A program made the position numbers and the translations under genes. Below are positions 2,825-50,766 of a DNA stretch of 60,517 bases, in pieces. The notes beneath the pieces were generated by a model that saw only the letters and a program-made list of their open reading frames with translations, was not told where the DNA came from and ran no database searches. Within the stretch, counting starts at the first letter, position 1. Every line of letters starts with the position of its first letter. Origin of the DNA: an uncultured virus (IMG/VR IMGVR_UViG_3300032038_000020) (lineage: Duplodnaviria; Heunggongvirae; Uroviricota; Caudoviricetes); the IMG/VR virus record IMGVR_UViG_3300032038_000020, positions 62,001-122,517 of that record; one strand, given 5' to 3'.

Positions 2825-2940
2825 AAAGCAATCCTCCTTTTAAGTAATTAGCATAGTCATCCATGCTTACTATAATAGTATATAACCATAGATACTTACC
2901 AAGGCCAGAACTTCTAAGTAATCAGAAAAGGAGGAATCGT

Positions 2941-4077
2941 ATGTTTTACAGTAACCCAAACGCTACCAGACCTACTCTGGTAGAGATACATACAGCAGAT
3001 ATTCACTTTGGAGCAATGGATCCAAAGGTTCAATATGATCTCTTAACTAAAGGGATTCTCGACAAGCTTCAGAATATACAGTTCGATCTGTTCTGTATCA
3101 ACGGAGACTTGTTTCATCATAAGTTCATGAGTAACTCGGATGCGGTATTATATGCATCCATGTTTGTAGACAATATCGTACAGCTCTGTAAGAGAAATAG
3201 AGCTGCTCTGATCTTACTTCATGGTACTGCGTCTCATGATGCTAACCAGTTAAAACTATTCTATCACTACCTCGCAGATACTACACTCGAGATGTACATA
3301 ATAGAAACAGCTACATTCGTTTCAACACACGGTAAGAAGATACTCTGTCTCCCAGAGGAATACAATAAGGGTAGAGATTACTATCTAAACCTCTTGGAGT
3401 GGAGCGGTTCATACGATAGTGTATGTATGCACGGAAATCTTAAGGGTGCTATCTTCGGTTGCGACAAAGAAGATCTCGACACAACAAAGAACCCTACATT
3501 CGATATCAACTCATTCCAGTTCTGTAAGGGTCCTATCATTGCAGGACATGTACATGTGTCTGGCTGTTACCAAAGTCATATGTACTATTCAGGAAGTCCT
3601 CTTAGATGGCAGTTCGGAGAAGAAGAAACTAAGGGCTTCTTGATAGTTATACACGACCTCGACTCTACTTACTATACAGTGCAAATGGAAGAAGTTGTGT
3701 CGTTCAAGTACAATACTATCAATCTGGATGAGATGGTTAACTATGATCCTAAGGATGTAATCAAGTATCTAACGGACCTGAAAGCTACTGGTGTAGACTA
3801 TATCAAAGTCAAGTTCACTAAGGGTGGTCCAACTGTAGATGCTCTTAAGGTATACTACAAGATGAACAATGAGATTACTATAGATGCTTCGGATGTTCAA
3901 TTCCAAGAGACTATAAGAGAGAACCAAAAGGTGAGCGAAGAGTATGCTAAGTATTCATATATCTCCGACAAGAATCTTACTCCTAATGATATCATAGTAC
4001 GATACATCAATGATGAGAAAGGTTGTGAATTCATCACTGTAGATGAGCTCGTCAAGTTACTCAGTTCAATCGATTAA
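2941..4077 (+). CDS. sbcD: SbcD/Mre11-like metallophosphoesterase nuclease
   Basis: ADIHFG, NGDLFH, HGTASHD, AGHVH, YSGSP motifs; start reassigned to ATG 2941 after AGGAGG. Confidence 0.85.
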   Translation: MFYSNPNATRPTLVEIHTADIHFGAMDPKVQYDLLTKGILDKLQNIQFDLFCINGDLFHHKFMSNSDAVLYASMFVDNIVQLCKRNRAALILLHGTASHDANQLKLFYHYLADTTLEMYIIETATFVSTHGKKILCLPEEYNKGRDYYLNLLEWSGSYDSVCMHGNLKGAIFGCDKEDLDTTKNPTFDINSFQFCKGPIIAGHVHVSGCYQSHMYYSGSPLRWQFGEEETKGFLIVIHDLDSTYYTVQMEEVVSFKYNTINLDEMVNYDPKDVIKYLTDLKATGVDYIKVKFTKGGPTVDALKVYYKMNNEITIDASDVQFQETIRENQKVSEEYAKYSYISDKNLTPNDIIVRYINDEKGCEFITVDELVKLLSSID

Positions 4078-4197: not shown

Positions 4198-6291
4198 ATG
4201 CGAGTTAGAACCGCAGGTAAAACAATCGAACCAATGGCCTCTGAGGTGAAGATACCTCAGAGACTTTCAATAACACTTTTGGATATAATCTGTTCTTATA
4301 TGATAACAGATAACAAAAACATTCGTCGTAAGGGATATACAAATATCCTCATGGCGATGAACACATTAGACCTTAGCATCTATACAGATGATGCATACTT
4401 ATTACGTTTCGACTTCATTAAGACTGCTCTTAAGGCAAGAGTCGATAACGGCTTAACCAATCAGGCTCTCGTAATGGACTATATAGAAAACAATCTTGGA
4501 GATCTCTATAAGGAGATTGAACTTAGAGAGCTCAATAATAAAGAGATAGACTACATCAATCAGACAATCTCAAACATGCTTGACAATGTAGTCTTCGCAC
4601 GTAATATAATGTCCTTTGAGTCTATAGCTCAGAGGTTTAAAGAAGCTAGTCCTAACCAGAAACCGTCTATAGTTAAAGAGTGGAAAGGACTTGTTGATGA
4701 AAGTAAGAATGCCATTCGTCAGCATCGTATAGAGAAGACTGACGAACAGATGTATTCACTGCAAGAGGGTGTATTCGAAGATTACGTAATGTACACTCAC
4801 GCAGATTTATCTAGCCCGTGTAACAAACTTGCCACAGGTATGATTGGATTCAATGTCCTTTTAGGGGGTGGATTCCAGTCTGATAGAATATATGGTATCT
4901 TTGGACTGCAGGGTGAAGGTAAGTCATCAACTTTAGTTAACTTAGCATATCAGATCAAGATGTATAACAGAGGGTATAAGTGTAAAGACCCGACGAAGAC
5001 ACCTTGTGTAGTATATTTGACAATGGAAGATCATCCTAAGGAGACTCTGTCACGTCAGTTCTCGATGGTAACAGAACAGGGTAGTCTTATCGATCATGAC
5101 GTTAATGAGTCAATTCAGCTTATGAGACAGGGTGGTCTCGAGGTAACTCCAGATAACCCGATTGATATCATAGTCAAATATAAACCTAATGAGTCTGTAG
5201 ACACATCATATATCTATGACTTAGTAGACGATCTTGAAGAGATGGGATATGAAGTTATCTGCGTGATACTTGACTATCTCAACAGAATTCGTTCAGTCAA
5301 TAAATTTAGTGCGTCCGAAGAAAGACTCAGACTTGGTGCTGTTGTAAATGAGCTTAAGACTATAGGAACAGAACTCCACATCCCAGTCATTACAGCAGCT
5401 CAGTTCAATAGAAGTGCTAATAAGAATATAGACGAAGCTAGAGAAAGCGGAACAGACGATCTTGTCAATCTTCTCGGAAGAGATAATATAGCTGAGTCTA
5501 TGAAGATACTTGACAACCTCGATGCGGCATTCATGATAGTGCCAGAGTTCGATATCAATCATCATAAGTATCTCGGTATCAAGTTAGCAAAGAACAGATA
5601 CCAGGTTGATTTAGAGTCTCCTCTTATCAATACTAAGAAGAGATGTATTCATCATCCATACACAAACAACTTCTCTATGCGTCTTGCAGAAGATGTATTA
5701 TCAGGAGTGCCAGTTCATAAGAAGACACTCGTAGAGATGCAGATGTGTGATGAAGAAGGCATTGTAGTAGACGACAATGCTATCATTCCAGATAACAGCA
5801 ATAGATTCAACTCTGCTGTTACAGAGTCTACAAAGAAGAATCTCCTCAAAGAAGCAGGTATCAAGGATACAAGTAAGACTACAGTAGTAGGTAATACTGT
5901 CGTACCTAATCTTGATAATATGACTGAGGAAGAGAAAACGAAGTACAAGAAGAAAACGTCAAAGAGTAAGAGTGCAACTAAGTGCACTCTCACACCTGAT
6001 AGATATTCGTTCTTGTATACATTGACTCAAGACCCATTGGGATCTATCAATCAGAGATTTGTAGATGACTTCAACAAAGAGTTTAATACAAACTATGGTG
6101 TCGATATGTTCCCATACATAGCTAGTACTAGAGAAATCAACCGTCTTAGAAAGGTGGAAGGTTCTCAGTATGAAGATATGAAATGCAAGAAGGGTGAACT
6201 ATATACACCTCTCTTCAGGGTAGTAGAACAGAGAAATCTGTTTGAGATATTGACTCCACAAGAGTATGCGGCTTCACGTTGCAGAAGCTGA
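4198..6291 (+). CDS. dnaB: DnaB-like replicative helicase
   Basis: Walker A GLQGEGKSS, YLTME, ILDYL, PVITAAQFNR, AKNRY. Confidence 0.88.
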   Translation: MRVRTAGKTIEPMASEVKIPQRLSITLLDIICSYMITDNKNIRRKGYTNILMAMNTLDLSIYTDDAYLLRFDFIKTALKARVDNGLTNQALVMDYIENNLGDLYKEIELRELNNKEIDYINQTISNMLDNVVFARNIMSFESIAQRFKEASPNQKPSIVKEWKGLVDESKNAIRQHRIEKTDEQMYSLQEGVFEDYVMYTHADLSSPCNKLATGMIGFNVLLGGGFQSDRIYGIFGLQGEGKSSTLVNLAYQIKMYNRGYKCKDPTKTPCVVYLTMEDHPKETLSRQFSMVTEQGSLIDHDVNESIQLMRQGGLEVTPDNPIDIIVKYKPNESVDTSYIYDLVDDLEEMGYEVICVILDYLNRIRSVNKFSASEERLRLGAVVNELKTIGTELHIPVITAAQFNRSANKNIDEARESGTDDLVNLLGRDNIAESMKILDNLDAAFMIVPEFDINHHKYLGIKLAKNRYQVDLESPLINTKKRCIHHPYTNNFSMRLAEDVLSGVPVHKKTLVEMQMCDEEGIVVDDNAIIPDNSNRFNSAVTESTKKNLLKEAGIKDTSKTTVVGNTVVPNLDNMTEEEKTKYKKKTSKSKSATKCTLTPDRYSFLYTLTQDPLGSINQRFVDDFNKEFNTNYGVDMFPYIASTREINRLRKVEGSQYEDMKCKKGELYTPLFRVVEQRNLFEILTPQEYAASRCRS

Positions 6292-9173: not shown

Positions 9174-9257
9174 TAAGTTGTCTTAAAACAACTTTTGGCT
9201 ACATATCATACCTTTGAGTCAAGAACAATACTAAGACTCAGAAAGGAAATCGAAACA

Positions 9258-9974
9258 ATGAGCGATAACATTGTAAACCCCTTTGGTATTGTGAATCCTG
9301 TATCTGGTGAAGTAACCGAACAGGAAGTTAATCCTACCAAAGAGGATCTCAAACTTATCAAAGAAAAGGAAAAGAGACTGGCAGAAGAGGCTAAGAAGAA
9401 CCTCAAGACAGTCAAAGTTGCAGATGGTACAGCAACAACTAAGAGACCTGCTAAGAATAAGAGAGCTCCACAGGCTCCAGTAGTAGCAGGTAAACCACAA
9501 CAGCAGAATGTTCCTCAGAAGCCTAAGCAGATACAGTCTGTAAAAGAGTATCTTGTGTGCTTTGTATTTGAGGGACAGGATATGACTGAACCAGACTGGA
9601 CACGTTCCAGATGGATAACTGCAGAAGGAAGAGGTTTATGCTTTGCTAAGACAGTAAGCATGATTCATGATATAACCTCTGAAAATGAAGACTTCTATGA
9701 TCCTATCGATTATGAGGAGTCATTCGTGTTATGCACGGGAGTCAAGTATGAAGAGAAGGTTCCGCTCCTTCAGTTCATCAGACTCTGCATCGAGAAAGAA
9801 GCCAAAGCAATAGACAAGTATATGCTTGACTATATGCAGGCAGTCCTCAAGTCATACGAAACTGGTTCGTTTGAACCTATTGACGAATGGGTCAAGGTTA
9901 ACAATGATACACCTTGTACTCCACAGGTTCAGCAGACCATGTATACATCACTTGAGGGTGAAGATATAAACTAA
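9258..9974 (+). CDS. hypothetical protein
   Basis: Start reassigned to ATG 9258 after GAAAGGA. Confidence 0.8.
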   Translation: MSDNIVNPFGIVNPVSGEVTEQEVNPTKEDLKLIKEKEKRLAEEAKKNLKTVKVADGTATTKRPAKNKRAPQAPVVAGKPQQQNVPQKPKQIQSVKEYLVCFVFEGQDMTEPDWTRSRWITAEGRGLCFAKTVSMIHDITSENEDFYDPIDYEESFVLCTGVKYEEKVPLLQFIRLCIEKEAKAIDKYMLDYMQAVLKSYETGSFEPIDEWVKVNNDTPCTPQVQQTMYTSLEGEDIN

Positions 9975-10812: not shown

Positions 10813-11349
10813 ATGGATAAAGCAAAACTTATAGCTCTTAGAAAAGAGCTTCATCAGCTTACCAATATAGCTAGAAAGAATCCCGATCAGAAGATAGATG
10901 TACCGCTCATCATAGCAATCGATCACGGTACTACTGTAATCGACGAGATCGATAGTTGTATAATGTGGGATGATGATAACGAAGTATTGTACTCAATCGA
11001 GTACAATAACAACGTGAACGACAAGCTGTACAATATCTGCCCGATGAGAATCAGAGCATTTCAGTACAGCACGATCGTTTCAGTAACTGCGAGAGCAGAT
11101 CTGAATATGCTTATGGACTTCTTCGACTCAAAGATTTCTGACGGAATCACGAATGAGACTACTAAGGAGAAGTACAGAAAGGCATACATGGATATGAGAG
11201 ATCCGAGAACCTTCGCTGCAGGACATCCTAGTCCGTCTACTTCAAAGGATCTTCCTTTGAATCAGGTAGATAGATTCAACGAAGACTTCCCGCTCATGAA
11301 TCCATCAGCTATCATGGCAAACCTCGAGAACTCAAATCCTGAGGTATAA
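10813..11349 (+). CDS. hypothetical protein
   Basis: 178 aa, AAGGAGG RBS. Confidence 0.8.
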   Translation: MDKAKLIALRKELHQLTNIARKNPDQKIDVPLIIAIDHGTTVIDEIDSCIMWDDDNEVLYSIEYNNNVNDKLYNICPMRIRAFQYSTIVSVTARADLNMLMDFFDSKISDGITNETTKEKYRKAYMDMRDPRTFAAGHPSPSTSKDLPLNQVDRFNEDFPLMNPSAIMANLENSNPEV

Positions 11350-11433: not shown

Positions 11434-12510
11434 ATGATGTACAATTCTGTTTTCAACACACCCAACGGAGGAATCTATCCTTCAACAGTAATCAACCCCG
11501 TTAATGAGAAGCCTCAGGTTTCTACTCTTAACGAAAAGGAAGAGAAGATCCTCGCTTCAACAGGCGGAAACGAGTTCGTTTTCACAGAGGAAGAAATGGC
11601 AGTAGCTCACTGCAACCACGCTCCATCAAACAACGGCCAGAATGTTCTGGAAGTAGAAAGCGATGACGGAGTTGTTGCAAAGTTCCGTTGCAGACGCTGC
11701 CACACTACATTCGAAGTGGACAGAAGAATCACTGAGAGTGATGTAAGCAAGGTGTGCGAGGTAATGCATAATATACTCAACACCATCAAAACATATCTTG
11801 GATCTGAGATCTCACCTCAGTTCGCAAGAGACGTGTTCAGCATTGATGCAGCTTTCCCGAAGCTGCCTAAGCTCTACTCACAGGCTAAGAAGAGCATCGA
11901 GCAGAAAGTCGCTGCACTCAATCAGCAGTTCCAGTATGCAAATCCTGGTGCTTACTTCGGCCAGGCAAATCCATACCAGACTGCATTCGCAAACGGTCTG
12001 AACAGTCCGTCAGCACAGTACCAGTACAACCAGTACGCTGCAGCTGCATATCCTACCTTCAATGGTAATGGAATGCCTCAGCAGATGTATGGTTACGCAG
12101 GACAGCCTGGAATGCCTGTAAATCCATATGCAGCTCAGACACCTCAGATGGTAAATCCTTATGCTCCTCAGCAGGGATATGCACCTTCTCCTGTTGGCGG
12201 TCTGATGACTGCAGAAAATCCGCTGTATACTTCACAGACTAGCGGAGTAGCTCCTGAGGGTACTGGAACTTATTCAGTTCCTGCTCCCAACTCAGGAATG
12301 ATGTTCAACAGCGTTGTTCCCTCAAACGTAAATGTTGCTCCTGCAGCTCCTATGGCAGGTACAACAACACAGGCAACACCTCAGATGAACATCCCTACAG
12401 TAGGAAGTCCTGCACCTGCACTTCCTCCTGTAACAAACCCTACACCTGCAGCTGCTCCTGCTCCTAATGTAGCAACTCCTGTAGGTAACACAAGCACAAT
12501 CACACTGTAA
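11434..12510 (+). CDS. Zn-finger protein with long P/A/Q/Y-rich low-complexity tail
   Basis: HCNH...CRRCH; tail with NPYA/QQMYG repeats. Confidence 0.7.
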   Translation: MMYNSVFNTPNGGIYPSTVINPVNEKPQVSTLNEKEEKILASTGGNEFVFTEEEMAVAHCNHAPSNNGQNVLEVESDDGVVAKFRCRRCHTTFEVDRRITESDVSKVCEVMHNILNTIKTYLGSEISPQFARDVFSIDAAFPKLPKLYSQAKKSIEQKVAALNQQFQYANPGAYFGQANPYQTAFANGLNSPSAQYQYNQYAAAAYPTFNGNGMPQQMYGYAGQPGMPVNPYAAQTPQMVNPYAPQQGYAPSPVGGLMTAENPLYTSQTSGVAPEGTGTYSVPAPNSGMMFNSVVPSNVNVAPAAPMAGTTTQATPQMNIPTVGSPAPALPPVTNPTPAAAPAPNVATPVGNTSTITL

Positions 12511-21366: not shown

Positions 21367-22179
21367 TTAATCCCACGGAGAACGGAACAATGGTACATAT
21401 ACAGGTTGCTGTGCAGGCGCTTGTGAAGGTATACCAGCATAGTTATCGTTACCATCTCTTAAAAACGACAGACGCTGTTTAAGCAGTTCCCGAGTAGCCC
21501 CAAGCTGGTCGACTTGAGAGTTGTCTCCCATATCGATAGCAATGTATTTCTTTTCAAGTATCTGCATGTAGTCATTGTATATCTGATCTTGTGCAAGCTT
21601 CTCAATCATTTTCAGTTTGTCGAGAAGTTCAGTATCGATATAGTCATGATATTGCTGAACGAATGCATTGTAATATCCGTATACCCTGTTCGCAGGAACA
21701 TAGATATACTGATTATGAACAAGCTCATGAACAGTCTCTGATAATGGGATAAGTCCTACCATTAAGCAGTAGTGTACATAGAGTACTTCATATGCTACTG
21801 CTTCTATAGTAAGAAGCTCTCCAAGAGCCATTCTCTTTCTGATGATTATACTACAGATCTCATAGAGTGTCATAGGAGAGTGGTGAATCTCTATCCTTAT
21901 CTTAGGAGTAAACTCGTTCGATACGTTAGGCAGAAATGCACAGTTTCTCATATCCATATACTCCCTGAGATACTGTACCATGTTCTTGTATTCGAGTGAT
22001 TGTCTGACAAATCTCTCGAGATCTTTTATGTATTTAGTCATATCCTTCTCATCAAACATATCGTAGTCTTGAACACCGTACTCGGGTATGTCGTTCGGAA
22101 TTGCAATTATATCGATATCGTTAGGAGTGAAGGTATCAAGAGGATTAGTAGTATCCACTTCTTTGTTATTGTAATCCAT
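21367..22179 (-). CDS. hypothetical protein, degenerate HNH-like
   Basis: CAF...IEIHH...LIPLSETVHELVH; start 22179 after GAAAGGAGG. Confidence 0.5.
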   Translation of the reverse strand: MDYNNKEVDTTNPLDTFTPNDIDIIAIPNDIPEYGVQDYDMFDEKDMTKYIKDLERFVRQSLEYKNMVQYLREYMDMRNCAFLPNVSNEFTPKIRIEIHHSPMTLYEICSIIIRKRMALGELLTIEAVAYEVLYVHYCLMVGLIPLSETVHELVHNQYIYVPANRVYGYYNAFVQQYHDYIDTELLDKLKMIEKLAQDQIYNDYMQILEKKYIAIDMGDNSQVDQLGATRELLKQRLSFLRDGNDNYAGIPSQAPAQQPVYVPLFRSPWD

Positions 22180-34422: not shown

Positions 34423-35763
34423 ATGCTTAGATCATTCACATTCGGTTGTGGTCAGGGTGCTACAAAGGCAATGATTACGGCCATTGACAATGGTGTACTT
34501 GATAAGGGTAGATGTGTAGTAGTTAACTCTACGATCAAAGATGTCCCTTCAGAGTACAGACCTACTGCTATCATCATCTCAGACGATCCTGACGCAGGTT
34601 GTGGTAAAGTAAGAGACGCAGCGCGTGCGTTGATGAATGACTTTATCAAGGTTAACCCAAACTATCTCGAGGAACTTATCCCCGAAGATACAGACTATGT
34701 AAATATTATCACCACTTCAGAAGGTGCTTCTGGTAGTGGTTCTTCTGTAGTACTTGCTCAGTACATCAGTAACTCTATTCAGCTTCCTGTTATCATTACA
34801 CTGATCACAGGCTTCGAGTCTGATGTAAGAGGTCTTCAGAACACTATCAACTACTTCAGAGACCTTAAGGGTGCTAACTGCGGAATCATCACTGTATCAA
34901 ACAGACGTTTCCTCAATGAAGCTAACGGCAATATCTTCGTTGCAGAGAAGCTTGCTAATGAGGATATCTCTAAAACACTCTCTATCGTCGGAGCTCAGGG
35001 TCTTATAGACTGCGAGCAGAACATCGATGATACAGATCACTACAAGATTATCACCAATCCTGGTGTAGTCTTCGCTGGTGAAGTTGAAGTGTCAGACCGT
35101 ATCAAGAATGCCGAACAGTTCAACAAGCTTGTTGGCGATATGATCGACAATACTACTTCACTTGACTTCGAGCCTTCTGCTACTAAGGTAGGTATCTACA
35201 TGAACATACCTGAGGAGACTATAGAAGTACTCGATACTTCATTCTCTATCATCAAGAAGAAGCTCTGCTGGAATGGCTTCCAGGAGTTCTTCATCCACAG
35301 ACAGTATAATCCTAAGCAGAAGAGTTTCATCAGAGTCATTGCTTCGGGTATCAACATGCCTAAGGCTGAACTGATGAGCATGTACGACAAGTTCGAGAAG
35401 TCTACCAACCAGATGAACGCTGCAGAGGATGACTTCTTCGATACTCTTGGTAAACTTGAGACTAATGCACAGCTGGAGAAGAAGGTTGAAAGAGATGATT
35501 CATTTCTTGACTCCTTCGCAACAGCTTCTAGCGATGAAGCTAGCGCAGTCTTATCGAGAAATAAGAGGAAGTCGGGTGTTAAGCTCGGCACATCAAAGCA
35601 CTCGGCACCTGAGAAAGTTTCAGACACAACTGATAAGGTTGCTGATGAAGAAGTGAAAAAGAATCCTCTTACTACCAACGGTAAGACTCAGATAAATCCC
35701 AAACACTCTATGGGTACTAACAAGCATCTCACAGAGTTCTCGGAAGAGGGAATCAACAAGTAA
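34423..35763 (+). CDS. tubulin/FtsZ-family GTPase (PhuZ/TubZ-like)
   Basis: FGCGQGA (T1), VVVNS (T2), DAGCGK (T3), SEGASGSG (degenerate GGGTGSG), NIDDTD (T7); disordered C-terminal tail. Confidence 0.82.
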   Translation: MLRSFTFGCGQGATKAMITAIDNGVLDKGRCVVVNSTIKDVPSEYRPTAIIISDDPDAGCGKVRDAARALMNDFIKVNPNYLEELIPEDTDYVNIITTSEGASGSGSSVVLAQYISNSIQLPVIITLITGFESDVRGLQNTINYFRDLKGANCGIITVSNRRFLNEANGNIFVAEKLANEDISKTLSIVGAQGLIDCEQNIDDTDHYKIITNPGVVFAGEVEVSDRIKNAEQFNKLVGDMIDNTTSLDFEPSATKVGIYMNIPEETIEVLDTSFSIIKKKLCWNGFQEFFIHRQYNPKQKSFIRVIASGINMPKAELMSMYDKFEKSTNQMNAAEDDFFDTLGKLETNAQLEKKVERDDSFLDSFATASSDEASAVLSRNKRKSGVKLGTSKHSAPEKVSDTTDKVADEEVKKNPLTTNGKTQINPKHSMGTNKHLTEFSEEGINK

Positions 35764-37229: not shown

Positions 37230-39461
37230 ATGAAAATCGAACAGAACCCAAAACTTGACCAAGCATTTGCTGAAGTCTATGCGTCTAATCGTCCGATAGA
37301 TCAGATGCTTGGTAGATCAGGACTCCAGATATGTGAGTCCCTGAATTCATCTTCAAGAAAGATAATGCATTCCAACCAGAAGAAACAAGCTAAGTGTCCG
37401 AAGGAACCAGAGGTTCCTCTTGCTGGTACTGGAATAGAGAACCGTTATGGACACAAATCATCGGCATTCTTACAGTCTAATGAAGCACAGACTGTAATAG
37501 CCAAGATAAGTAGATACTCTATGTACCCAGACCATGAGTACTATCTTATCCTTAAGAACGAACACAACGAGCTCAATATGGTGACTCGTAAAGTTTGTCA
37601 GCACAACACCGAGACATTCGGTTTCCTTTGGAACAATGATTACATCGATTCTCTTCAGGAGGATGATGTCATTCCTAAAGGAACAGTGTATAAGAAAAGC
37701 ACCAGTTTCGATGAGTACAATAACTACAAAGCTGGTGTAAATGCGCTTGCTACTTATGCAAGCCTTCCTCAGACTACAGAAGACCCTGTTATCATAAGAC
37801 AGGGATTCCGTAAGAAACTCAGCTCTCCAGAGTTTAAGAGTATAACCGTTAAGTTAAACGACAACGATGTATTCTTAAATCTGTATGGAGACGAAAACGT
37901 CTATAAGGCTTTCCCAGATCTCGGTGAAGAGACTAAGAACGGTATACTCTGTTCTATAAGAAAAGCCAATTCAGACAACTCAGCGTTTACCTTATCTAGA
38001 GACTCACTCAGAAATATAACTATCTCTGATGAGACTATAGTTCCCAAAGAAGGTAAAGTCATAGACATAAAAGTCTATTCTAACAAGCAGATAGCCCCAG
38101 GACGTGAGGATGGAGAACTCTACAACGTCTTTGAGGGTCAGCTTAGAATGTACGTTGATGAAGAGAACCGTTTCGCTAGACAGTTTGTCGAAGCTATGGC
38201 TAACTACATCAACAACAAGGACTACAAGGTATCTTATGAGCTGGAAGAGATGTACTATAACTGTCAGGGTAGACTTGAAGGAAAGCAGTTTATCGAAGAT
38301 GGTAAGATCACCAGCAATATAGTTATAGAGTTCCTTGTATACTGCGATCACAATATATCTATAGGTGATAAGCTTGCTAACCGTAATGGAGGTAAAGGCG
38401 TTATCGCTGATATATGGCCAGATGAAATGATGCCAAAACTTCCAGATGGAACACCTATCGACATTATATGGGATGAGAGTACTTGTGTAAACCGACTCAA
38501 TATAGCTCAGCTCTCAGAACTGTCTATCAATCGTATTGGTAGAGGAATCCTCGACTATATCAACTTGGGTGTACTTGATACTGCACAGATATGTGGAATA
38601 CTCACAGACTTCTATAGAGAGCTTTCACCAGATCTTGCAGACTTCTTCCAGAAGACTCTTGAGTGTTGTGAGACTGATCAGGAACTTATTACGCTCGTAG
38701 AGTCATTCTTATATCCTACTGAAGGGCCTAGAGGAATCTATACTTCCCTTCTTCCTATCAGTGAGTGCGTAGACTTCGATAAGATCAGAAAGATCTATGA
38801 GAAGTTCTCATATATCAAGCAGGAATATCTTCAGGTACCTATACAGAACTCAGATGGTACTTATCGTTATACATGGTCTAATAAACCATCTACGGTAGGT
38901 GAACAGTTCATATACATCCTCAAGCAGGAAGCTGAAGAGAAACACTCTGCTACTTCTGCATCTTCGACTAATATCAAGGATGAGAACAGCAAGAGTAAAG
39001 AGTCTAAGGAGTACAGATGTGCTATCACTAAGACTCCAGTTAAGTGGGGAGAGATGGAGACAATGATCTTCCTCCACTGTAGCTCAGAGACTGTAGTAGT
39101 CAACGCTATGCTGATGTCTCTGTCTCCTAGAGCACGTAGAAGTGTCATGGACATGCTTCTCGGAGATCCGTATCATATCGATATCCATATCGACATGGAT
39201 GCTCGTAACAGATCTGCAGAAAAGGTACAGGCTATTATGAAGGGTATGGGACTTAGACTAAAGTTTAAGAAGATACCTATAGTCAAAAAGCCAGTATTCG
39301 AGATGGCAGAACAGAAGATGCTCTTCGAAATAGTTCCGCAGAAGATGCTTTTTGAGCAGATACCTCAGAAGATGCTCTTCGAACCTATGGAGATGAAACC
39401 TCTGTTCGAGCCAGTAAAGCAGGAATTACTTTTCAAACCACTTTGGTTATGCAAAGACTAA
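37230..39461 (+). CDS. RNA polymerase beta subunit, C-terminal half (putative non-virion RNAP)
   Basis: SSSRKIMHSNQKKQ, EDPVII, GDKLANRNGGKGVI, MMP..PDG.PIDII, NRLNIAQL, KWGEME. Confidence 0.9.
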   Translation: MKIEQNPKLDQAFAEVYASNRPIDQMLGRSGLQICESLNSSSRKIMHSNQKKQAKCPKEPEVPLAGTGIENRYGHKSSAFLQSNEAQTVIAKISRYSMYPDHEYYLILKNEHNELNMVTRKVCQHNTETFGFLWNNDYIDSLQEDDVIPKGTVYKKSTSFDEYNNYKAGVNALATYASLPQTTEDPVIIRQGFRKKLSSPEFKSITVKLNDNDVFLNLYGDENVYKAFPDLGEETKNGILCSIRKANSDNSAFTLSRDSLRNITISDETIVPKEGKVIDIKVYSNKQIAPGREDGELYNVFEGQLRMYVDEENRFARQFVEAMANYINNKDYKVSYELEEMYYNCQGRLEGKQFIEDGKITSNIVIEFLVYCDHNISIGDKLANRNGGKGVIADIWPDEMMPKLPDGTPIDIIWDESTCVNRLNIAQLSELSINRIGRGILDYINLGVLDTAQICGILTDFYRELSPDLADFFQKTLECCETDQELITLVESFLYPTEGPRGIYTSLLPISECVDFDKIRKIYEKFSYIKQEYLQVPIQNSDGTYRYTWSNKPSTVGEQFIYILKQEAEEKHSATSASSTNIKDENSKSKESKEYRCAITKTPVKWGEMETMIFLHCSSETVVVNAMLMSLSPRARRSVMDMLLGDPYHIDIHIDMDARNRSAEKVQAIMKGMGLRLKFKKIPIVKKPVFEMAEQKMLFEIVPQKMLFEQIPQKMLFEPMEMKPLFEPVKQELLFKPLWLCKD
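39283..39450 (+). repeat. 27-bp-period coding tandem repeat (QKMLFE-type nonapeptide, six copies)
   Basis: CAGAAGATGCTYTTYGA three times plus degenerate copies; KKPVFE/QKMLFE/QKMLFE/QKMLFE/MKPLFE/QELLFK. Confidence 0.85.
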
Positions 39462-39532: not shown

Positions 39533-39709
39533 ATGACACAGATCGTAGATAGTATAATGCTTATAGTGCTCTTCTGTTTAGCAATTGCTATAATGATCGC
39601 AATGTTAGTATGCTTTGCGAAGATCGCTATAGTACCAATCGATGATGAAGATGAAGAATGGGATGATGAAACCCCAGATTCTCTTCAGGCTGAAAGGAGT
39701 GGAAACTAA
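39533..39709 (+). CDS. small single-pass membrane protein with acidic tail
   Basis: Hydrophobic stretch then DDEDEEWDDE; AAAGGAGG RBS. Confidence 0.7.
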   Translation: MTQIVDSIMLIVLFCLAIAIMIAMLVCFAKIAIVPIDDEDEEWDDETPDSLQAERSGN

Positions 39710-42015
39710 TGTACAAAAAGATCATTCAGCATCTTCTCAATGGAGATGCCTCAGATCTTGTTCCTGAAACAATCAGGAACATCAACTCACATGTGGTGAG
39801 GTTTCTTAATCGAACCAATCTTGATCCACAGGAAGTTGAAATAGTGGGTGATATATTGCATATCAGCAATATCATCTACAACAACACGGATAGGAGTATC
39901 CTTGTACTTGAAGACGGAGTATATGATAATCTGCTTCAGATGTACAAGAGGTACAATCCTAATTATCAGGTTGGAGGAGAACCTGTACATTTTGCTCCTG
40001 TTGGAGAGACTGTCGTTAAAGAGACTCCACAACAGAGACCAGTACAACTCTTCCAAGAGATGCACTACGATAAAGATATGCTCTTCAGAAAAGATATAGC
40101 GTCTAACAACACATATCGAAGAGCAGACTTTGGTGGAGAAGACGTTAAAGCATCAAAACGACTCCGCAATACTGCACACAACTATCCACAGCTCGTGGGT
40201 ACTCTTGATAAGGCTAAGTTTACGCTCAATCAGGAGGCAGTAGAAAGAAATGCTTGGAACAATCCAAACGTTGTAATCTTCGAAAGAGATTTCCTCGCTA
40301 AACACATCCAGGAGGGTATAGTTGATCCTAACAATATATCCCTTGTTTGTGAGCTCAAGTATGATGGAATCTCAGTGGAAGCAGATGTAACCGATGAGGT
40401 TGTGTCTGCAAGAACTAGAGGAGACACTGGAATGGATAAGGCTACAGACCTTACTTCAGTCTTCCAGGGTTATCCGTTCATGGAAGCAAAAGAATATGCT
40501 AAAAAGGTAGGTCCTATAAAGCAGTTTGGTATGAAGTTTGAAGCTATAGTAGACAACTTTGCTTTACAGGAACTTGATAGAAAGCATAATATAAGATATG
40601 TGAGCTCTCGTAATGCAGTAATCGGTCTCACTAGTAGAGCTGATGCACGTATGTATGCTCATTATATCACTCTCGTCCCTCTTCAGACAAGTCTTGAGAA
40701 TATGAATAGGGTAGAAGAGATTGCGTTTATGAACAAGTTCTATGCTAACGGCATCTACTTAAGTCATGCTGTTATACATGGAAATTATCAATCCGTTTTG
40801 TATCAGGTATATAAGTTCGTTCAGGAAGCAGAACAGATGAGAGACTATATCCCATTCAAGTATGATGGTATAGTTGTCTCTTATATAGATCCTGTAATAA
40901 GAACTGCACTTGGTAGAAAGAACTTTGTCAATCAGTTCTCCATAGCTATCAAGTTCAATACTATGAAGAAACTTACCCAGTTCATCGGTTATGACTATAC
41001 TGTTGGTAAGGACGGAACAATAACTCCGATGATAAACTACAATCCAGTAGAATTCTTCGGAGGTATAAACACGAAGTCTTCTGGACACTCATGGAAACGT
41101 TTCTTCGAGCTTGGTCTTCGTAAAGGAGATTGGCTCCAGGCTGAGTTCAGGAACGATGTCATGGTCTATATAGAGAAGGCTAACGTGGAAGAGAATCAGT
41201 ACAATCCTATGCCAATGGAACAGTTCCCCAGTAATTGCCCGTGTTGTGGTACGAAGTTGGTGTTCAGCGATAAGAATGCCAAGTGTATCAACTTAGCGTG
41301 TCCTGGAAGGGTTTTAGCTAGAGTAACAGACATGCTCGCTAAGCTAGGTTTTAAGGGATTCGCCGAGGAGAGTGTTAAGAAGCTTGAACTCAAAGGATTT
41401 GATGACCTCGTAAACGGAATGTCAGAGGAGAGAATTATCAAAGCTCTCGGTAAAGCAGATGGTCAGGACTTTATGGAACAACTCTCTAAGTTCCTGACAG
41501 ATCCACAGTTCGACTATATAGTACTTGGAAGCCTCGGCTTCTCATCTATAGCCTCAACAAAGTGGAAAGGAATACTCCAAAAGGTTTCATTGGATGAGCT
41601 CATAAATCTTGACAATATGACCTTATCCACTATAATGCAATCGAAGCCTAACAAGATAGGTACAAAGACGATTCAGACTGTCCTCGAAGAGAGGCCAATC
41701 TTTATCAATGATTTGATAGCAATCAAGAATCTCAGGAATCTTGTATCTATCAAAGATAACAAGAACGGAACAACTTCTAAGATAATCAGATTCAGTGGAT
41801 GTAGAGACGTTCAACTCATGATGGCTCTCAACAAGCTGGGGCATGATTGTTCAGAAGGATCTGTTACAAAGAACACAAACATTCTCTTAGTCCCATATAT
41901 GGGATTCAACAGCACCAAAGTTGCATCTGCTTCAAAGTATAACAGCAATGGTGCTTTCATTCGCATACTGCCTATAGAAGAATTCAGAAAGAACCCAAAC
42001 GCGTTCCTTCAGTAA
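39709..42015 (+). CDS. ligA: NAD-dependent DNA ligase
   Basis: ELKYDG, TRGD, YDGIV, AIKF, VGKDGTITP, CPCC Zn finger, BRCT-like VTKNTNILL. Confidence 0.92.
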   Translation: MYKKIIQHLLNGDASDLVPETIRNINSHVVRFLNRTNLDPQEVEIVGDILHISNIIYNNTDRSILVLEDGVYDNLLQMYKRYNPNYQVGGEPVHFAPVGETVVKETPQQRPVQLFQEMHYDKDMLFRKDIASNNTYRRADFGGEDVKASKRLRNTAHNYPQLVGTLDKAKFTLNQEAVERNAWNNPNVVIFERDFLAKHIQEGIVDPNNISLVCELKYDGISVEADVTDEVVSARTRGDTGMDKATDLTSVFQGYPFMEAKEYAKKVGPIKQFGMKFEAIVDNFALQELDRKHNIRYVSSRNAVIGLTSRADARMYAHYITLVPLQTSLENMNRVEEIAFMNKFYANGIYLSHAVIHGNYQSVLYQVYKFVQEAEQMRDYIPFKYDGIVVSYIDPVIRTALGRKNFVNQFSIAIKFNTMKKLTQFIGYDYTVGKDGTITPMINYNPVEFFGGINTKSSGHSWKRFFELGLRKGDWLQAEFRNDVMVYIEKANVEENQYNPMPMEQFPSNCPCCGTKLVFSDKNAKCINLACPGRVLARVTDMLAKLGFKGFAEESVKKLELKGFDDLVNGMSEERIIKALGKADGQDFMEQLSKFLTDPQFDYIVLGSLGFSSIASTKWKGILQKVSLDELINLDNMTLSTIMQSKPNKIGTKTIQTVLEERPIFINDLIAIKNLRNLVSIKDNKNGTTSKIIRFSGCRDVQLMMALNKLGHDCSEGSVTKNTNILLVPYMGFNSTKVASASKYNSNGAFIRILPIEEFRKNPNAFLQ

Positions 42016-42115: not shown

Positions 42116-42877
42116 ATGAAAACAATGGAACTCAGAGACACTAATATGCCACAGCTTTTCAGAAGCTCACTCATCAGCGAGCTTACTGGCAGTGGCACAA
42201 ATGGAAATGCAATTCACTTCGTAATCAGTGACACAACTAATGAAAAGGATCAGCGCAATGACAGCGTATATCCTTTCACTGCAGTCATAGCAGCTTGTGC
42301 TCGTATCATGAGTGCAGATGCTATGAAGAGCAAAGACCACAAGACCGCACTCGTATTCTCCGATCCTAAGGGCGCAGGAAGCATGCTTATGGCTTGCATT
42401 TCTGAGTGGATCCCTGAAGGAGACGACGGAAACTACAATTTCTACTTCTCCTTCGACCCTGAAGACATCAAGGGTATTCCTGAGGACGCAATCAAGCCGT
42501 TCTATGATATCCAGGCTATAATGCCTTGGGGTCCTACTCTGAGGGATGTACTTACTAACGTACATTGCCGCAGAATCGACGACCTTGAGATTCTCAACGG
42601 AATCACAATCCTGGTCGTAAAGACTATCTGCAACTGGCTCGATTCAAACGCCAACGAGTCAGAAACAGTCAATGTCGAATTCAAAGACAGTACTGTATAT
42701 GATGCAGAGCTCACGGCAGAAGGCGCACCTAACCCGATCGACTTCGAGACATACAAGTCACACTGGGTAACTTATGCTACCGCTACAGTATCTGTAGAGC
42801 GCGGCATCAAGAAGAAGACCATGACCTTCGGCGAAGAGATGAAGGCTATCGCTAAGGGAAATGCAGATCTCACTTGA
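42116..42877 (+). CDS. hypothetical protein
   Basis: 253 aa, AAGGAGG RBS. Confidence 0.8.
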   Translation: MKTMELRDTNMPQLFRSSLISELTGSGTNGNAIHFVISDTTNEKDQRNDSVYPFTAVIAACARIMSADAMKSKDHKTALVFSDPKGAGSMLMACISEWIPEGDDGNYNFYFSFDPEDIKGIPEDAIKPFYDIQAIMPWGPTLRDVLTNVHCRRIDDLEILNGITILVVKTICNWLDSNANESETVNVEFKDSTVYDAELTAEGAPNPIDFETYKSHWVTYATATVSVERGIKKKTMTFGEEMKAIAKGNADLT

Positions 42878-42950: not shown

Positions 42951-43637
42951 ATGTTACACCCAATAAACCAGGCTTACGTAAACGGCGTCAGAGTCGATGT
43001 CGTAAGTCCATCAGAATACTTCTACAACCAAGAGTTGTACGATCCGAAAACGACGTGCATCATGATGGAGAATGTGGATTATATTCTCCCAATTCGTACG
43101 TCTAATGTTGACCTTAACGTTCCTGGTTTCTATGTAACGCCAGGAGTCTATGGTCCTGGAGCTAGTCCGTTCATTCCTATAGTACCTCCAACTAAGAATG
43201 AAATGGAAACGTACTCCACAAAAAACATTGTAGATTTCTCCAACGTGTCATCAATGTCTGAATATCTCGCCGCTAATGCAGAGCTGGTTGAACAGGAGAG
43301 AAAAGCCTTCCTGTCGGATCAGCCAGATGATGTGGTGAGACTAATCATAGATGAGGTGTCCGATACACCTCTGATGATATTATGCAAAAGCATTATCAAT
43401 AGCAAGTTTGTTACCTCGAAGTTCCTCGAGAATAGAATGGGTAACAACTACAACAACAACATGCGTCTGCTGAAGAATAAGAACGATATCTCCTACAACA
43501 AAGCAGTTGAGATACTCAACTGTATCGATGTAAAGATAACGGCTACGGCAGACAATGCAATCAGCTCGGCTGTATATCCAATGCAGTCTCCTATCACATA
43601 CGATCTCAACTCAGGTATAAATGGGGGGTGTTTCTGA
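42951..43637 (+). CDS. hypothetical protein with possible C-terminal HTH
   Basis: NNMRLLK...ISYNKAVEILNCIDVKI resembles an XRE-type tail; translationally coupled to the RNAP gene. Confidence 0.55.
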   Translation: MLHPINQAYVNGVRVDVVSPSEYFYNQELYDPKTTCIMMENVDYILPIRTSNVDLNVPGFYVTPGVYGPGASPFIPIVPPTKNEMETYSTKNIVDFSNVSSMSEYLAANAELVEQERKAFLSDQPDDVVRLIIDEVSDTPLMILCKSIINSKFVTSKFLENRMGNNYNNNMRLLKNKNDISYNKAVEILNCIDVKITATADNAISSAVYPMQSPITYDLNSGINGGCF

Positions 43638-45424
43638 TGAGACCTTTAGAATGGGACGGTAAATGCTATCAGATGTATCCCAATCAGAGATCTATGATAG
43701 CAGTATACAACGAAACTCACAGAGCTCCGTTCAATGACGATCTGTTTAAGAGAGACGTTAATGATATCATTAGTTGTCTCAAGAATATCATACTCTCTGC
43801 TCAGAGAGATGAATTCTTCAAGATACAGGTTACTGGCTTCAGAGAGATAACTTCATATGCTGAAGTTCAGGAACGTCTTAGAGCACTCGAATCGAACTCT
43901 AACAACAAGAGAAAGAGATTCAATGAGTACGAGTATATCAATCTCAAACCATCAAGTGTCATGCTTCTCGAAGTTCTGTATCATCTCGAAACAGAAGAAG
44001 AGAAGTGTGATACTTCGGTTATAATACAGGTACCTATAGTCGTTGATAAGTATTACTTCAAGATCAACGGCTGTAAGTATTCGGCGCAGTACCAGATAGT
44101 GGATGCGTCTACCTACAATAACACTAGCATGGGATCTGCAAAGGTCCCTGCAGTGTTTATGAAGTCAGCATTCTCAAGAACTGTTGTGCATCGTATGGAG
44201 AAGAAGCTTACCACAATCGATAAGGAAACCATACCTTGTATGCAGTTTGTATGTGACATCTTCGCTAATAAGATATCTGCTGAGAAGTTCATACTCTGTA
44301 AGTTCGGTCTTAACAGAGGTATAGAGTTTCTCAATCTTCATGATATCGGATACACTAGTGAAGCCACACTTGATGAGAAGTACTATTACTTCCCTACAGA
44401 GATCCCAGGAGTCAATGTGTATTGTCCTAAGTTTCTTTACGACAACAACTACATGTATCAGAGCATGTGTTACTGTCTCGTGAAGAATGCTGTTCAGAGT
44501 TACACATTAGCGGATCTCTATACTGAAGACTACTGGCTGGAGTCTCAGGGTGCTGAGCTTAAGACCAGAACCAAATTCAAAGGTATGTCATTCAGAGAAT
44601 CGTTTGAAGTCTCTATAGACAATAACACATATGATCACCTCAGGGTATCAGATGAGTATAAGAAGAGAGACGCTTATACAGTTCTCAGATGGATACTTCA
44701 GAACCATGCAGCATTGTTGCTCAAGGACAACACAAACATTGCTGCTAAGCGAGTAAGATTTGGTGAGTATATAGCGGTTCATTATGCTAGAAAGCTTGCT
44801 AACAATATCAAGCGTGTAGCTAATGCAGCTAACAAGGTATCGATGAAGAAGCTCAAACAGATCATTGGTATCAAACATCACTATCTTATCGATCAGCTTA
44901 AGAGTAGTTGTACTCTCGTCACCTATAACAACATGGTTAATGATGACGATGCTATAGTACCACTCTCTTATTCATTCAAAGGCATCTCAGGTATTGGAGA
45001 GAACAAGACATCTGCAGTACAGACTAAGTATAAACTTGTTAACCCAAGTCATCTTGGTCGTCTGGATATGACTGATTCTTCTAACAGTGATCCTGGAATG
45101 TCTGGTACACTTGTACCTTATGCAAAGCTCTACGAGGGTGGATATCTTAGCGATTTCCACGAACCTTGTAAGGGACGTGATGATCTGGATAAGCTCTATG
45201 AAGAGTACAAACAGCTTAACGGAATTGTTGAGCTCGAGTTTGCTAAAAGTGCAATGCTTGGTAGAAGCAATTCAGATACCATCATGGAGTTAACCTCATA
45301 TAAAGAGCTCATGGATAAGATATCTAATGCTGCTCTGAATCTTAATGATCCTGTTGTAGATGTCGTCAGCGAACTCCCGTTAGTCGAAGACGGCTCTATT
45401 ACTATAGGAGCAATAGCAGCTTAA
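43637..45424 (+). CDS. RNA polymerase beta subunit, N-terminal half (putative non-virion RNAP)
   Basis: YFKINGCKYSAQYQI (RpoB FIINGxERVIVxQL), KRVRFGEYI, SFKGISG, VNPSHLGRLD...PGMSG. Confidence 0.82.
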   Translation: MRPLEWDGKCYQMYPNQRSMIAVYNETHRAPFNDDLFKRDVNDIISCLKNIILSAQRDEFFKIQVTGFREITSYAEVQERLRALESNSNNKRKRFNEYEYINLKPSSVMLLEVLYHLETEEEKCDTSVIIQVPIVVDKYYFKINGCKYSAQYQIVDASTYNNTSMGSAKVPAVFMKSAFSRTVVHRMEKKLTTIDKETIPCMQFVCDIFANKISAEKFILCKFGLNRGIEFLNLHDIGYTSEATLDEKYYYFPTEIPGVNVYCPKFLYDNNYMYQSMCYCLVKNAVQSYTLADLYTEDYWLESQGAELKTRTKFKGMSFRESFEVSIDNNTYDHLRVSDEYKKRDAYTVLRWILQNHAALLLKDNTNIAAKRVRFGEYIAVHYARKLANNIKRVANAANKVSMKKLKQIIGIKHHYLIDQLKSSCTLVTYNNMVNDDDAIVPLSYSFKGISGIGENKTSAVQTKYKLVNPSHLGRLDMTDSSNSDPGMSGTLVPYAKLYEGGYLSDFHEPCKGRDDLDKLYEEYKQLNGIVELEFAKSAMLGRSNSDTIMELTSYKELMDKISNAALNLNDPVVDVVSELPLVEDGSITIGAIAA

Positions 45425-45439: not shown

Positions 45440-45682
45440 GTGGACATTTATACTCGCTACTTCCTCTTCTCCCAATCTCATTATGATAAGATCATGGAGA
45501 TTGAGAGAAGAGCAGGAAACAGAAACTACAAACCTGGTACAGTGCTGGTAGGAGGTTATTACAGACCTTTCACCGCTATGGAAACCAGACCAGAGAAGTA
45601 TACTCAGATACACGGAGACGCTAAAACCGTTCTGGTTGGAGATATTCGTAAAGTGAAGTATACTGATCCTGTAAAGGAGTAA
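45440..45682 (+). CDS. hypothetical protein
   Basis: 80 aa, AAAGGAGG RBS, GTG start. Confidence 0.7.
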   Translation: MDIYTRYFLFSQSHYDKIMEIERRAGNRNYKPGTVLVGGYYRPFTAMETRPEKYTQIHGDAKTVLVGDIRKVKYTDPVKE

Positions 45683-45687
45683 TCGAT

Positions 45688-46095
45688 ATGGAAACAGAAC
45701 CTTTATTCAAAGTGATCAACATCGGCGAGTGTCCATGTTGCGGACAGGATGGTAAGATAACTGTCAAGTTCCGCAATACAGAATACGTGACACTCAATAA
45801 GAATGGAAGAGTAACCAAATGGTCTGATGTTCAGAACCATATTGGAACTGCTTTCTGTGGTACATGTATGCAAAGGTTTGGTGCTATCAACTTGAGCGAT
45901 CTTGTTGGAATACCTGGGCTGGTACGTGTAGTACCGCTCGAGCATGTTAAAGATATCGCTTTGAGTTACCTCAAAGTCTATGCTAAGGATGAGTTTGAAG
46001 CTGCTGGAGAGAATCCATTAGTTTGTAAAACAATGACCGAAGCAGAGGATGCCGAGGAAGCTAGACAGCATATGGTAGACGTATCATATTTCTAA
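45688..46095 (+). CDS. Zn-ribbon protein
   Basis: CPCC...CGTC. Confidence 0.7.
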   Translation: METEPLFKVINIGECPCCGQDGKITVKFRNTEYVTLNKNGRVTKWSDVQNHIGTAFCGTCMQRFGAINLSDLVGIPGLVRVVPLEHVKDIALSYLKVYAKDEFEAAGENPLVCKTMTEAEDAEEARQHMVDVSYF

Positions 46096-48679: not shown

Positions 48680-48693
48680 TAATAGTATTACCC

Positions 48694-48842
48694 TTTTGAT
48701 GAATGGCGGCTCGGTGAGTAGAATCACCGAGCCTGTTATTCCGATTATTCCAATTTAATTGTAAATTATGATAAGGAAACAACATTATATTGAGCGGAAG
48801 TGAATAAACACCCGTGCTTCCGCATAAGCCATTCATCCAAAA
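48694..48842 (+). ncRNA. candidate four-way-junction structured RNA or leader
   Basis: GAUGAAUGGC/GCCAUUCAUC closes GGCUCGGUGA/UCACCGAGCC, UGUU-UUCC/GGAA-AACA and GCGGAAGU/GCUUCCGC arms. Confidence 0.55.
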
Positions 48843-48862
48843 TTAATTAGGAGGTTAACACT

Positions 48863-49570
48863 ATGAACGACACAAACAACATCGACTTCAACCGTATGAT
48901 CTCTTTCAAAAAGAGAATAGGACGTCCAAGCGACTCAACAGACTTCTTCGAAGATGAGCCTGGTCAGGAAACAGAACAGGTATCTGTAGAAGTAATAGAG
49001 GAAGAAGATCCTCTCAAAAGAAAAATGATTGAATGTCAGGTAGACTTTCGTAAGTACTACTCAGACATGAAGCGTGAAAGAGATAAGGCTAACGTTGTAG
49101 TAGCCAGAGCTTTTCTCACAAACTCTATACTGACATCGAACATGATGAAACAGAACAACGTATATCTGCCTACTGGCGAAAACTTCTCGTCTGGTATAAG
49201 GGTATGCGACAATGAGTATGTCGCTGTTACTAATGGCGGCACTCCAGTCAGTCAGATTCTCGACAACACAAACTCTGTCCCAGTTACTAATCTTCAGGAC
49301 TATGCAAACATCATCAATTGCTACAACGAGAAGGATCCTGATTCAGACTATATAACTAAGCAGGAAGCGGCTTCTATAGCTACTAACTATATCACATTTC
49401 GTGATCAGTCTCTTCTCGATAGCGTAGTTAAGAATGGATGCATGGATCGTCTCATAGGTAAAGACACTATCAAGAAGATCAAGTGTACGGAAATAAACGA
49501 TCCTATGATAATCACTTCACCTACAATAAGAGCAAACTCGAAGATTCAGCAGGACAATGATGAGGATTGA
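48863..49570 (+). CDS. hypothetical protein, paralog of the C-terminal domain of 46115..48679
   Basis: Shared VTNG, NSVPVTNLQDYANI, EAASI.TNYI..RDQ.LL, MI.TSPT. Confidence 0.8.
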   Translation: MNDTNNIDFNRMISFKKRIGRPSDSTDFFEDEPGQETEQVSVEVIEEEDPLKRKMIECQVDFRKYYSDMKRERDKANVVVARAFLTNSILTSNMMKQNNVYLPTGENFSSGIRVCDNEYVAVTNGGTPVSQILDNTNSVPVTNLQDYANIINCYNEKDPDSDYITKQEAASIATNYITFRDQSLLDSVVKNGCMDRLIGKDTIKKIKCTEINDPMIITSPTIRANSKIQQDNDED

Positions 49571-50532: not shown

Positions 50533-50766
50533 ATGACAGAACCACTCTTCAAAATGGCTGGACCTAAGTACTGTTCAAGATGCGGAACAGACGGAATAGC
50601 AATCATAGTAGTAAATACTCGTAAAGGTAAAGAAGCTCGGTGTATGCGGTGTAAGAACTGTGGTGCTGAGTTCATGATAGATTGGAGAAATCCTAAAGTT
50701 CCTAGACCTCTGTCAATGGGGTTGTATGCTAATATATGTCTAAGAGGTTTGAATGCTTATGTATAA
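50533..50766 (+). CDS. small Zn-ribbon protein
   Basis: CSRC...CKNC; GAAAGGAG RBS. Confidence 0.7.
   Translation: MTEPLFKMAGPKYCSRCGTDGIAIIVVNTRKGKEARCMRCKNCGAEFMIDWRNPKVPRPLSMGLYANICLRGLNAYV

Follow-up and report, generated by a model that had tools for sequence, protein, structure and literature searches.

The question raised by this locus is why the C-terminal beta subunit (beta-C) of a phage RNA polymerase (RNAP) ends in a row of six short, regularly spaced repeats. The subunit is encoded in a 60,517-nucleotide stretch of DNA (hereafter the window; positions 62,001 to 122,517 of IMG/VR record IMGVR_UViG_3300032038_000020) that makes up half of a 122.5-kb, 50% complete contig from a phiKZ/AR9-type jumbo phage. 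The genome encodes two multisubunit RNAPs, a divergent DnaB, an NAD-dependent ligase, tubulin and RecA, and the two multisubunit RNAPs, a split divergent PolB and the divergent DnaB place it in group 1 (phiKZ/AR9-like) of the jumbo phages; the closest cultured phages by beta-C are PBS1 and AR9, at 30% identity. The beta-C open reading frame (ORF) of the non-virion RNAP (37230..39461, + strand), an orthologue of AR9 gp089, matches phrog_3295 with an E value of 1e-89. The family model stops at residue 679, a C-terminal extension of ~60 residues lies on the window protein, and the AR9 protein terminates without one. As the first-pass annotation had described, the protein ends in six nine-residue repeats (39288..39443, +; KPVFE, KMLFE three times, KPLFE and ELLFK), whose six [LV]F motifs occupy residues 687-738 with a step of exactly 9 residues (27 nt); the QKMLFE part is also detected by Tandem Repeats Finder as a 27-nt unit present in 2.6 copies.

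The repeats are most likely copies of a short docking tag that is private to each phage lineage, and the tags very probably dock enzymes on a hub encoded by the phage itself. The tag has the register small residue or proline, hydrophobic, any, any, hydrophobic. It occupies flexible termini or linkers in the RNAP subunits of the non-virion enzyme (beta-C, beta'-C, a sigma-like subunit and often beta-N), in the DNA polymerase subunits, DnaB, a superfamily 2 (SF2) helicase and ligase, and in several small proteins. Within the window, related motifs are present at all of the sites named in the first-pass annotation: two tags nine residues apart near the C-terminus of DnaB (ORF 4198-6291; tags at 6205..6252, +), one in the N-terminal linker of the NAD-dependent DNA ligase (ORF 39709-42015; 40042..40062, +), one at the C-terminus of a phrog_12252 protein of unknown function (ORF 21367-22179; 21376..21396, - strand) that has an untagged homologue in AR9, and one at the N-terminus of each of two Zn-ribbon proteins (45688-46095, tag 45697..45717, +; 50533-50766, tag 50539..50559, +, family F99, E 8e-8). 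The DMLFR stretch of the ligase (40075..40095, +), which had also been listed, was rejected as a tag; similar (D/N)ML[FY] stretches are retained in relatives whatever their tag, so this is ordinary ligase sequence. A further motif, QQMLFTPMW, forms the C-terminal end of protein G000 58307-58894, just beyond the window.

The evidence that these motifs form one system comes from the relatives, in which arrays of other consensus take the place of the window's xLF repeats. The C-terminal extension is retained in 14 of 14 phage-type beta-C homologues from a protein search and in 40 IMG/VR loci, with repeated motifs recognized by eye, and the tail consensus differs from lineage to lineage (e.g., PFKRI, PFVRV, PMIQRV, PAFIK, PFIH, PIxF, PMxF, KAF, VMC, GMxY, IAxRV, AIxF, PFxI and PIxR). 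Genome by genome, the motif in the ligase linker is that of the beta-C tail of the same genome. For wider comparison, ORFs were called on tiles of 13 relatives and of G000 (two of these are small fragments, and genes at tile edges are cut); G003, G011, G014 and the final 36 kb of G017 fell outside this genome-wide comparison. When each tail pattern was counted in its own proteome and in the 13 others, with beta-C excluded, PFI[HR] occurred 12 times versus 0-2, VMC 8 versus 0-1, GM[VTH]Y 8 versus 0-2, I[AV].RV 14 versus 0-4, PM.F 11 versus 0-6 and P[IV].R 41 versus 2-22, while no such enrichment was seen for G000, G002, G010 or G017. Profiles built from the tail instances alone, although their anchors were set by eye after the ligase and other matches in relatives had been inspected, matched their own proteome in excess (P<0.05) for 10 of the 14 genomes.

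The strictest of the tests ranked 13 competing tail profiles, each genome's own among them, within fixed windows at the protein ends. For the C-terminus of DnaB, the own profile ranked highest in 11 of 13 genomes (P 4e-11), and it also led at the N-terminus of the sigma-like subunit (8/12; orthologue of AR9 gp226) and in the SF2 helicase (7/12), DNA polymerase subunit DNAP-N (6/10), beta'-C (6/11) and the phrog_12252 protein (family F38, 6/11). Only these 6 of 176 ends passed Bonferroni correction, and all belong to proteins of DNA or RNA transactions or of unknown function and none to a virion protein. At internal sites, the tail-only profiles favored self over non-self in the ligase (11/13 versus 55/156) and in DNA polymerase subunit DNAP-C (7/11 versus 28/132). 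A weaker signal was obtained for beta-N, SbcD, RNase H, F29, F80, F83 and F84; beta-N scored 8/13 for self versus 37/156 for non-self, and in the end-window test both beta-N and SbcD reached 4/13, not significant after correction. No signal was found at the ends of RecA, the SSB-like protein, Dda, SbcC, primase, gyrase or beta'-N, nor at those of the four virion RNAP subunits, capsid, terminase, tubulin or GroEL. Taken together, the ligase linkers of the relatives, the tail profiles and the rank test lend strong support to the earlier proposal of a multivalent docking code shared by the phage RNAP and replisome.

Several smaller genes follow the same pattern. Zn-ribbon genes in the same slot behind beta-N bear the tag of their own genome in G004, G006, G012 and G013, and F99 members in G004, G006 and G018 begin with theirs. 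A scan of 35 lineage-specific tagged proteins, most of which lack a family and some of which are presumably chance matches, included four HNH endonucleases, a Dam methyltransferase, a helix-turn-helix protein, the accessory protein Avd of a diversity-generating retroelement (DGR) and two LPD28 proteins; those that can be named are thus mostly DNA-acting. The Avd-like protein (G009 L074:16983-17708, +) carries the tag of its own genome and suggests the presence of a DGR in that phage. Among 179 refined tag matches, 118 lie at most 30 residues from a terminus compared with an expectation of 21%, a comparison that is partly circular.

Since the code is specific to each genome and changes in concert, we infer that the partner drifts with it and is encoded by the phage. 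The leading candidate for this hub emerged when synteny was used to look for genes whose divergence keeps them from clustering. A gene for a protein of ~210 residues (178-275) stands directly behind DNAP-N wherever the tiled genomes include DNAP-N (11 of 11) and at 149 of 160 further loci; of the remaining loci, eight end too near the site and three hold different genes. None of the 70 families is less conserved than this protein (mean identity 0.18, median 0.37), which falls into 777 clusters at 50% identity. A Pfam scan of 150 family members returned no common family, and a PDB sequence search with an 11-row alignment returned nothing significant; with a 150-row profile the sole PDB match was archaeal PCNA, at E 0.27. 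When the AlphaFold2 model of the G001 protein (pLDDT 89.6) was searched exhaustively with VIA, the first 38 rows comprised 36 titled as beta clamps, gp45, PCNA, 9-1-1, the African swine fever virus clamp or herpesvirus processivity factors, the other two being chains of a mismatch-repair complex and of the herpes simplex virus 1 holoenzyme. Z scores ran from 7.2 to 4.8 over these rows, the first unrelated row scored 4.2, and the best alignments covered 168-180 residues at a root-mean-square deviation of 4.3-4.8. In BFVD, four uncharacterised Myoviridae proteins matched at E<=0.001, and the weaker matches include jumbo-phage RNase H proteins of 492-557 residues, the size class of Rhc (see below). 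Conserved lysines K18, K180 and K205 would suit DNA binding, and the N-terminal domain of the model has fewer strands than the C-terminal one, which hints at a possible non-ring form. No clamp-loader family was found among the proteins in general scans, which also missed the clamp-like protein itself. On the strength of synteny and the predicted fold, this stand-alone clamp-fold protein is on balance the probable hub. The clamp guessed at in the first-pass annotation would accordingly be phage-encoded; the host beta clamp, which had been cited there as a precedent, does not fit, as discussed below.

A number of observations weigh against this interpretation. The clamp-like gene lies off the window's contig, which is only 50% complete, and was studied in a relative with an 85% identical beta-C. 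Foldseek returned nothing at E<=0.001 for the model against PDB, and no VIA Z score reaches 8. A partial Mantel test, run on distances near saturation, showed no correlation of the clamp-like protein's divergence with motif distance (r -0.18, P 0.86; rank 61 of 70), and columns equivalent to the PCNA pocket followed motif class no better than other columns (P 0.44) in a test of 44 sequences that were labelled by eye and whose signal is dominated by one clade. Three loci combine a tag-like polymerase tail with the absence of a clamp-like gene within 3 kb, and in 4 of 14 genomes the self excess is not significant. In the window's closest complete relative neither DNA polymerase subunit has an LF tag (there are only PF-type look-alikes), and the tag is also missing from SbcD, beta-N, the sigma-like subunit and the polymerase subunits in the window's sub-clade, where DNAP-N and the SF2 helicase carry PF-type look-alikes. 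For a clamp, DnaB and as many as four RNAP subunits would be unusual clients. In the available part of the Basu preprint, phiKZ Rhc binds its polymerase through a folded surface and no peptide. Finally, AR9 may carry a clamp-like gene in the same slot and yet has no tags. The gene there, AR9 g129 (L041, record 106726-107442, -), encodes a 238-residue hypothetical protein between the DNA polymerase and portal genes and shows a clamp-like C-terminal pattern by eye; it may be a tag-less clamp orthologue, its C-terminus being in register, but the hhalign probability of 0.5%, below that of other AR9 proteins, is not significant.

Two other explanations can be set against the lineage-specific code. 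The motifs had been labelled QxxLF peptides, and as such they could bind the host beta clamp (DnaN); four QxxLF strings do occur in the window's tail and one in DnaB. Over the whole contig outside beta-C, however, QxxLF is not enriched (5 seen versus 3.5 in shuffles, P 0.3). The form [PM]LF[EKRT], picked post hoc, occurs 12 times versus 1.9, a count reached in 0 of 100 shuffles. Among 42 distinct tails, QxxLF is present in 8, of which 7 are close relatives, the glutamine is not conserved, and QL[SD]LF is present in none. A FastTree phylogeny of the beta-C core shows the motif drifting from branch to branch, with the QxxLF form only at the tip around the window, and orthologous sites elsewhere carry VMC, GMxY, IAxRV or PFIH and those in sister lineages PFKRI or PFVRV. 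A conserved pocket on host DnaN would not permit such change, and the host-clamp label is very improbable. Still less credible is a DNA- or RNA-level element (a binding site, mobile repeat or slippage product) whose translation is incidental. It has in its favor the 27-nt tandem repeat that makes up a portion of the tail, but in nine of nine genomes the synonymous codons within the motifs vary as codon usage predicts (P 0.22-0.96); since synonymous codons are unconstrained, selection acts at the level of the peptide. The distinctive motifs are moreover rare in the other five frames (0-6 versus 10-22 in ORFs; this does not hold for G000 and G016, whose motifs are looser), and slippage explains only the copy number of the tail.

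Two further proposals concern other readers of a peptide tag. The tag might be a linear signal that directs proteins to, or imports them into, a replication compartment or condensate that admits self and excludes non-self, read by a low-complexity scaffold (F26), an AT-hook coiled-coil protein (F29), F27 or an unrecognised shell or import factor. Very different proteins have gained tags, including homing endonucleases, Dam and Avd; tags lie mostly near termini, and several RNAP subunits are tagged separately, as such a signal would have it. F26, F27 and F29 are clade-wide with no AR9 homologue found, and the arms of F26 are prion-like. This is the main rival to the clamp-like hub, although we judge it rather unlikely. 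RecA, the SSB-like protein F15, gyrase, primase, Dda and SbcC are untagged although they too need access to DNA, and nuclear import is known to use surfaces and no linear motifs, as far as the accessible text of PMC11087766 goes. Pfam and PHROG scans of 54 proteins from the window, 74 core proteins and another 82 gave no match to chimallin or PicA; these scans included no dedicated profile search and missed the clamp-like protein too. In the model of the one F27 that is itself tagged, the tag takes up no ordered position on the domain (pLDDT about 61). Alternatively, a phage protease adaptor or the phage chaperonin might read the tag as a signal for degradation, chaperoning or timing, in line with the hydrophobic, mostly terminal nature of the tags and the presence of a GroEL-like gene in the core. 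That is improbable: tags are confined to DNA-acting non-virion proteins, GroEL is also present in untagged AR9, internal linkers of the ligase and DNAP-C bear tags, and tandem arrays would better fit avidity.

If tags are docking peptides for a phage hub, all of them would bind one pocket of one protein that drifts together with its clients. The clamp-fold protein may, though this is less certain, act on duplex DNA as a loader-independent processivity factor similar to UL42 or Rhc, recruiting and exchanging tagged enzymes, and the six copies on beta-C would tether the RNAP avidly, coupling middle and late transcription to replicating DNA as gp45 does in T4. A broader picture is put forward tentatively, and is doubtful as a whole: in a widespread, AR9-related uncultured clade, a single stand-alone, loader-less clamp-fold protein may serve as the hub of both replication and transcription, its pocket drifting together with the tags of its clients. 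The codes of different lineages would then be mutually orthogonal, enzymes of co-infecting phages and of the host would be kept from the phage DNA, and selfish genes such as homing endonucleases, Dam and Avd would have to copy the tag to gain access. AR9, SA1, phiR1-37, AgentSmith and LPJP1 have no such tail array, the AR9 ligase lacks the linker, and the AR9 client termini, inspected by eye, share no common motif.

The tag system is akin to gp45 and PCNA with their peptides, and is neither a member of the beta-clamp motif family nor Rhc. Its hub-and-peptide logic and classes of client resemble those of the bacterial beta-clamp motif QL[SD]LF and the PCNA-interacting (PIP) box, but here that consensus is absent (0/42), no glutamine is conserved, orthologous sites vary by lineage and the hub is apparently phage-encoded. 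In T4, gp55 is a client of the gp45 clamp. According to the accessible part of PMC6212786, T4 ligase binds gp45 via a loop peptide common to gp43 and gp33, and the polymerase, ligase and transcription proteins that are clients of T4/RB69 gp45 likewise carry their short hydrophobic peptides in flexible loops or tails; both systems have a gene for a two-domain clamp-fold protein adjoining the polymerase (6drt, Z 7.2). In contrast to gp45, the motif is rewritten in each lineage, the tagged clients include a multisubunit RNAP of the phage itself as well as DnaB and SF2 helicase, up to six tags stand in tandem, and general scans found no clamp loader. The herpesvirus proteins UL42, UL44 and BMRF1, which have a clamp fold without a loader, are matched by the clamp-like model (Z 5.2-5.6). 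Herpesvirus processivity factors bind C-terminal peptides of the polymerase; they have one main client and a conserved peptide, whereas a dozen client families and a drifting code are found here.

PMC7824862 (section 3.4.1) describes the jumbo phages of group 1 as having no classical clamp. In chimalliviruses, the available portions of two preprints (10.64898/2026.09.30.755723, 10.64898/2026.10.01.755736) describe Rhc (phiKZ gp155, Goslar gp190) as a fusion of RNase H with a clamp-derived domain, which binds the split polymerase, forms no rings and pulls down subunits of the non-virion RNAP. The likeness extends to the phage supergroup, the split B-family polymerase, an apparently loader-less clamp-derived subunit, links to the non-virion RNAP and weak structural matches to the clamp-like model. 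Unlike Rhc, the clamp-fold protein stands alone here and the RNase H is not fused to a clamp domain (it has 220-280 residues and matches only 71-177 of the 496 positions of phrog_3265 in four of five genomes searched), and those portions of the preprints describe no peptide tags. The PicA/Imp1 nuclear import system resembles the tags in its phage-specific choice of DNA-acting proteins, including homing endonucleases, but works by surface patches and no linear motif (PMC11087766 and the review PMC13282480, as far as accessible); a primase-like nature of PicA finds no support in PMC11087766. No description of this tag system was found in the literature, of which subscription papers and bioRxiv supplements were largely out of reach.

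Clamp-binding motifs are textbook examples of deeply conserved peptides, yet here a dozen protein families rewrite one motif in concert, lineage by lineage. Hundreds of hub variants and their tags form a natural library for studying the evolution of a hub-peptide code and as a source of orthogonal docking pairs, and the tag gives an annotation handle on unknown genes. Replication-coupled transcription by a phage multisubunit RNAP becomes testable with a few peptides, and a stand-alone clamp-fold protein can be named in phages described, in the accessible part of PMC7824862, without a classical clamp.

Other genes of the window touch on the system to varying degrees. Beta-N (43628..45424, +; phrog_2943) and the SbcD-like nuclease (2863..4077, +) are untagged in the window and bear a C-terminal and an N-terminal tag, respectively, in several relatives; the small acidic protein of family F80 (9195..9974, +) bears one or two in relatives. 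Tubulin was rejected as the hub, since it is absent from the tagged genomes G004, G006, G010 and G015, and the SSB-like F15, which is untagged, was also set aside as hub; the window's tubulin/PhuZ-like gene (34423-35763, +), accompanied by no detected chimallin, is missing in 4 of 14 related genomes. F27 (42116..42877, +) is an acidic tandem alpha-alpha-beta-beta-beta protein, tagged in one relative, that was considered as a rival hub; docking on its own tag was not seen in the model. Its confident model has best Foldseek matches to Mycoplasma mobile gliding-machinery chains and doublet-microtubule proteins (E 3e-4 to 1e-3, TM 0.4-0.5), and the protein, which we take to be HU/CCDC81-like, could by its predicted fold be a phage tubulin partner or a DNA mimic. 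F26 (11434..12510, +), the other rival candidate encoded here, is a clade-wide protein upstream of gyrase B with a Zn-ribbon/helical, Zn-binding core between prion-like low-complexity arms rich in Q, Y, G, N and P. PDB sequence searches with F12, F26 and F27 gave nothing significant. F29 (G001 L042:4829-5812, -) combines an AT-hook-like RGRP, a coiled coil and a small C-terminal domain, is encoded divergently from DNAP-N and is tagged at its N-terminus in several genomes.

Three further observations concern other genes. Two adjacent ORFs at 46115-49570 (+; 854 and 235 residues), which have no family match, share a common C-terminal domain in an apparent local duplication. The small clade-wide protein F97 (10813-11349, +) has an Sm/Hfq-like pattern by eye. 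In G018 (L037), beta-N reads through into the small SH3-like protein F59 as a single ORF, which suggests that F59 (45440-45682 in the window) is an RNAP-associated factor.

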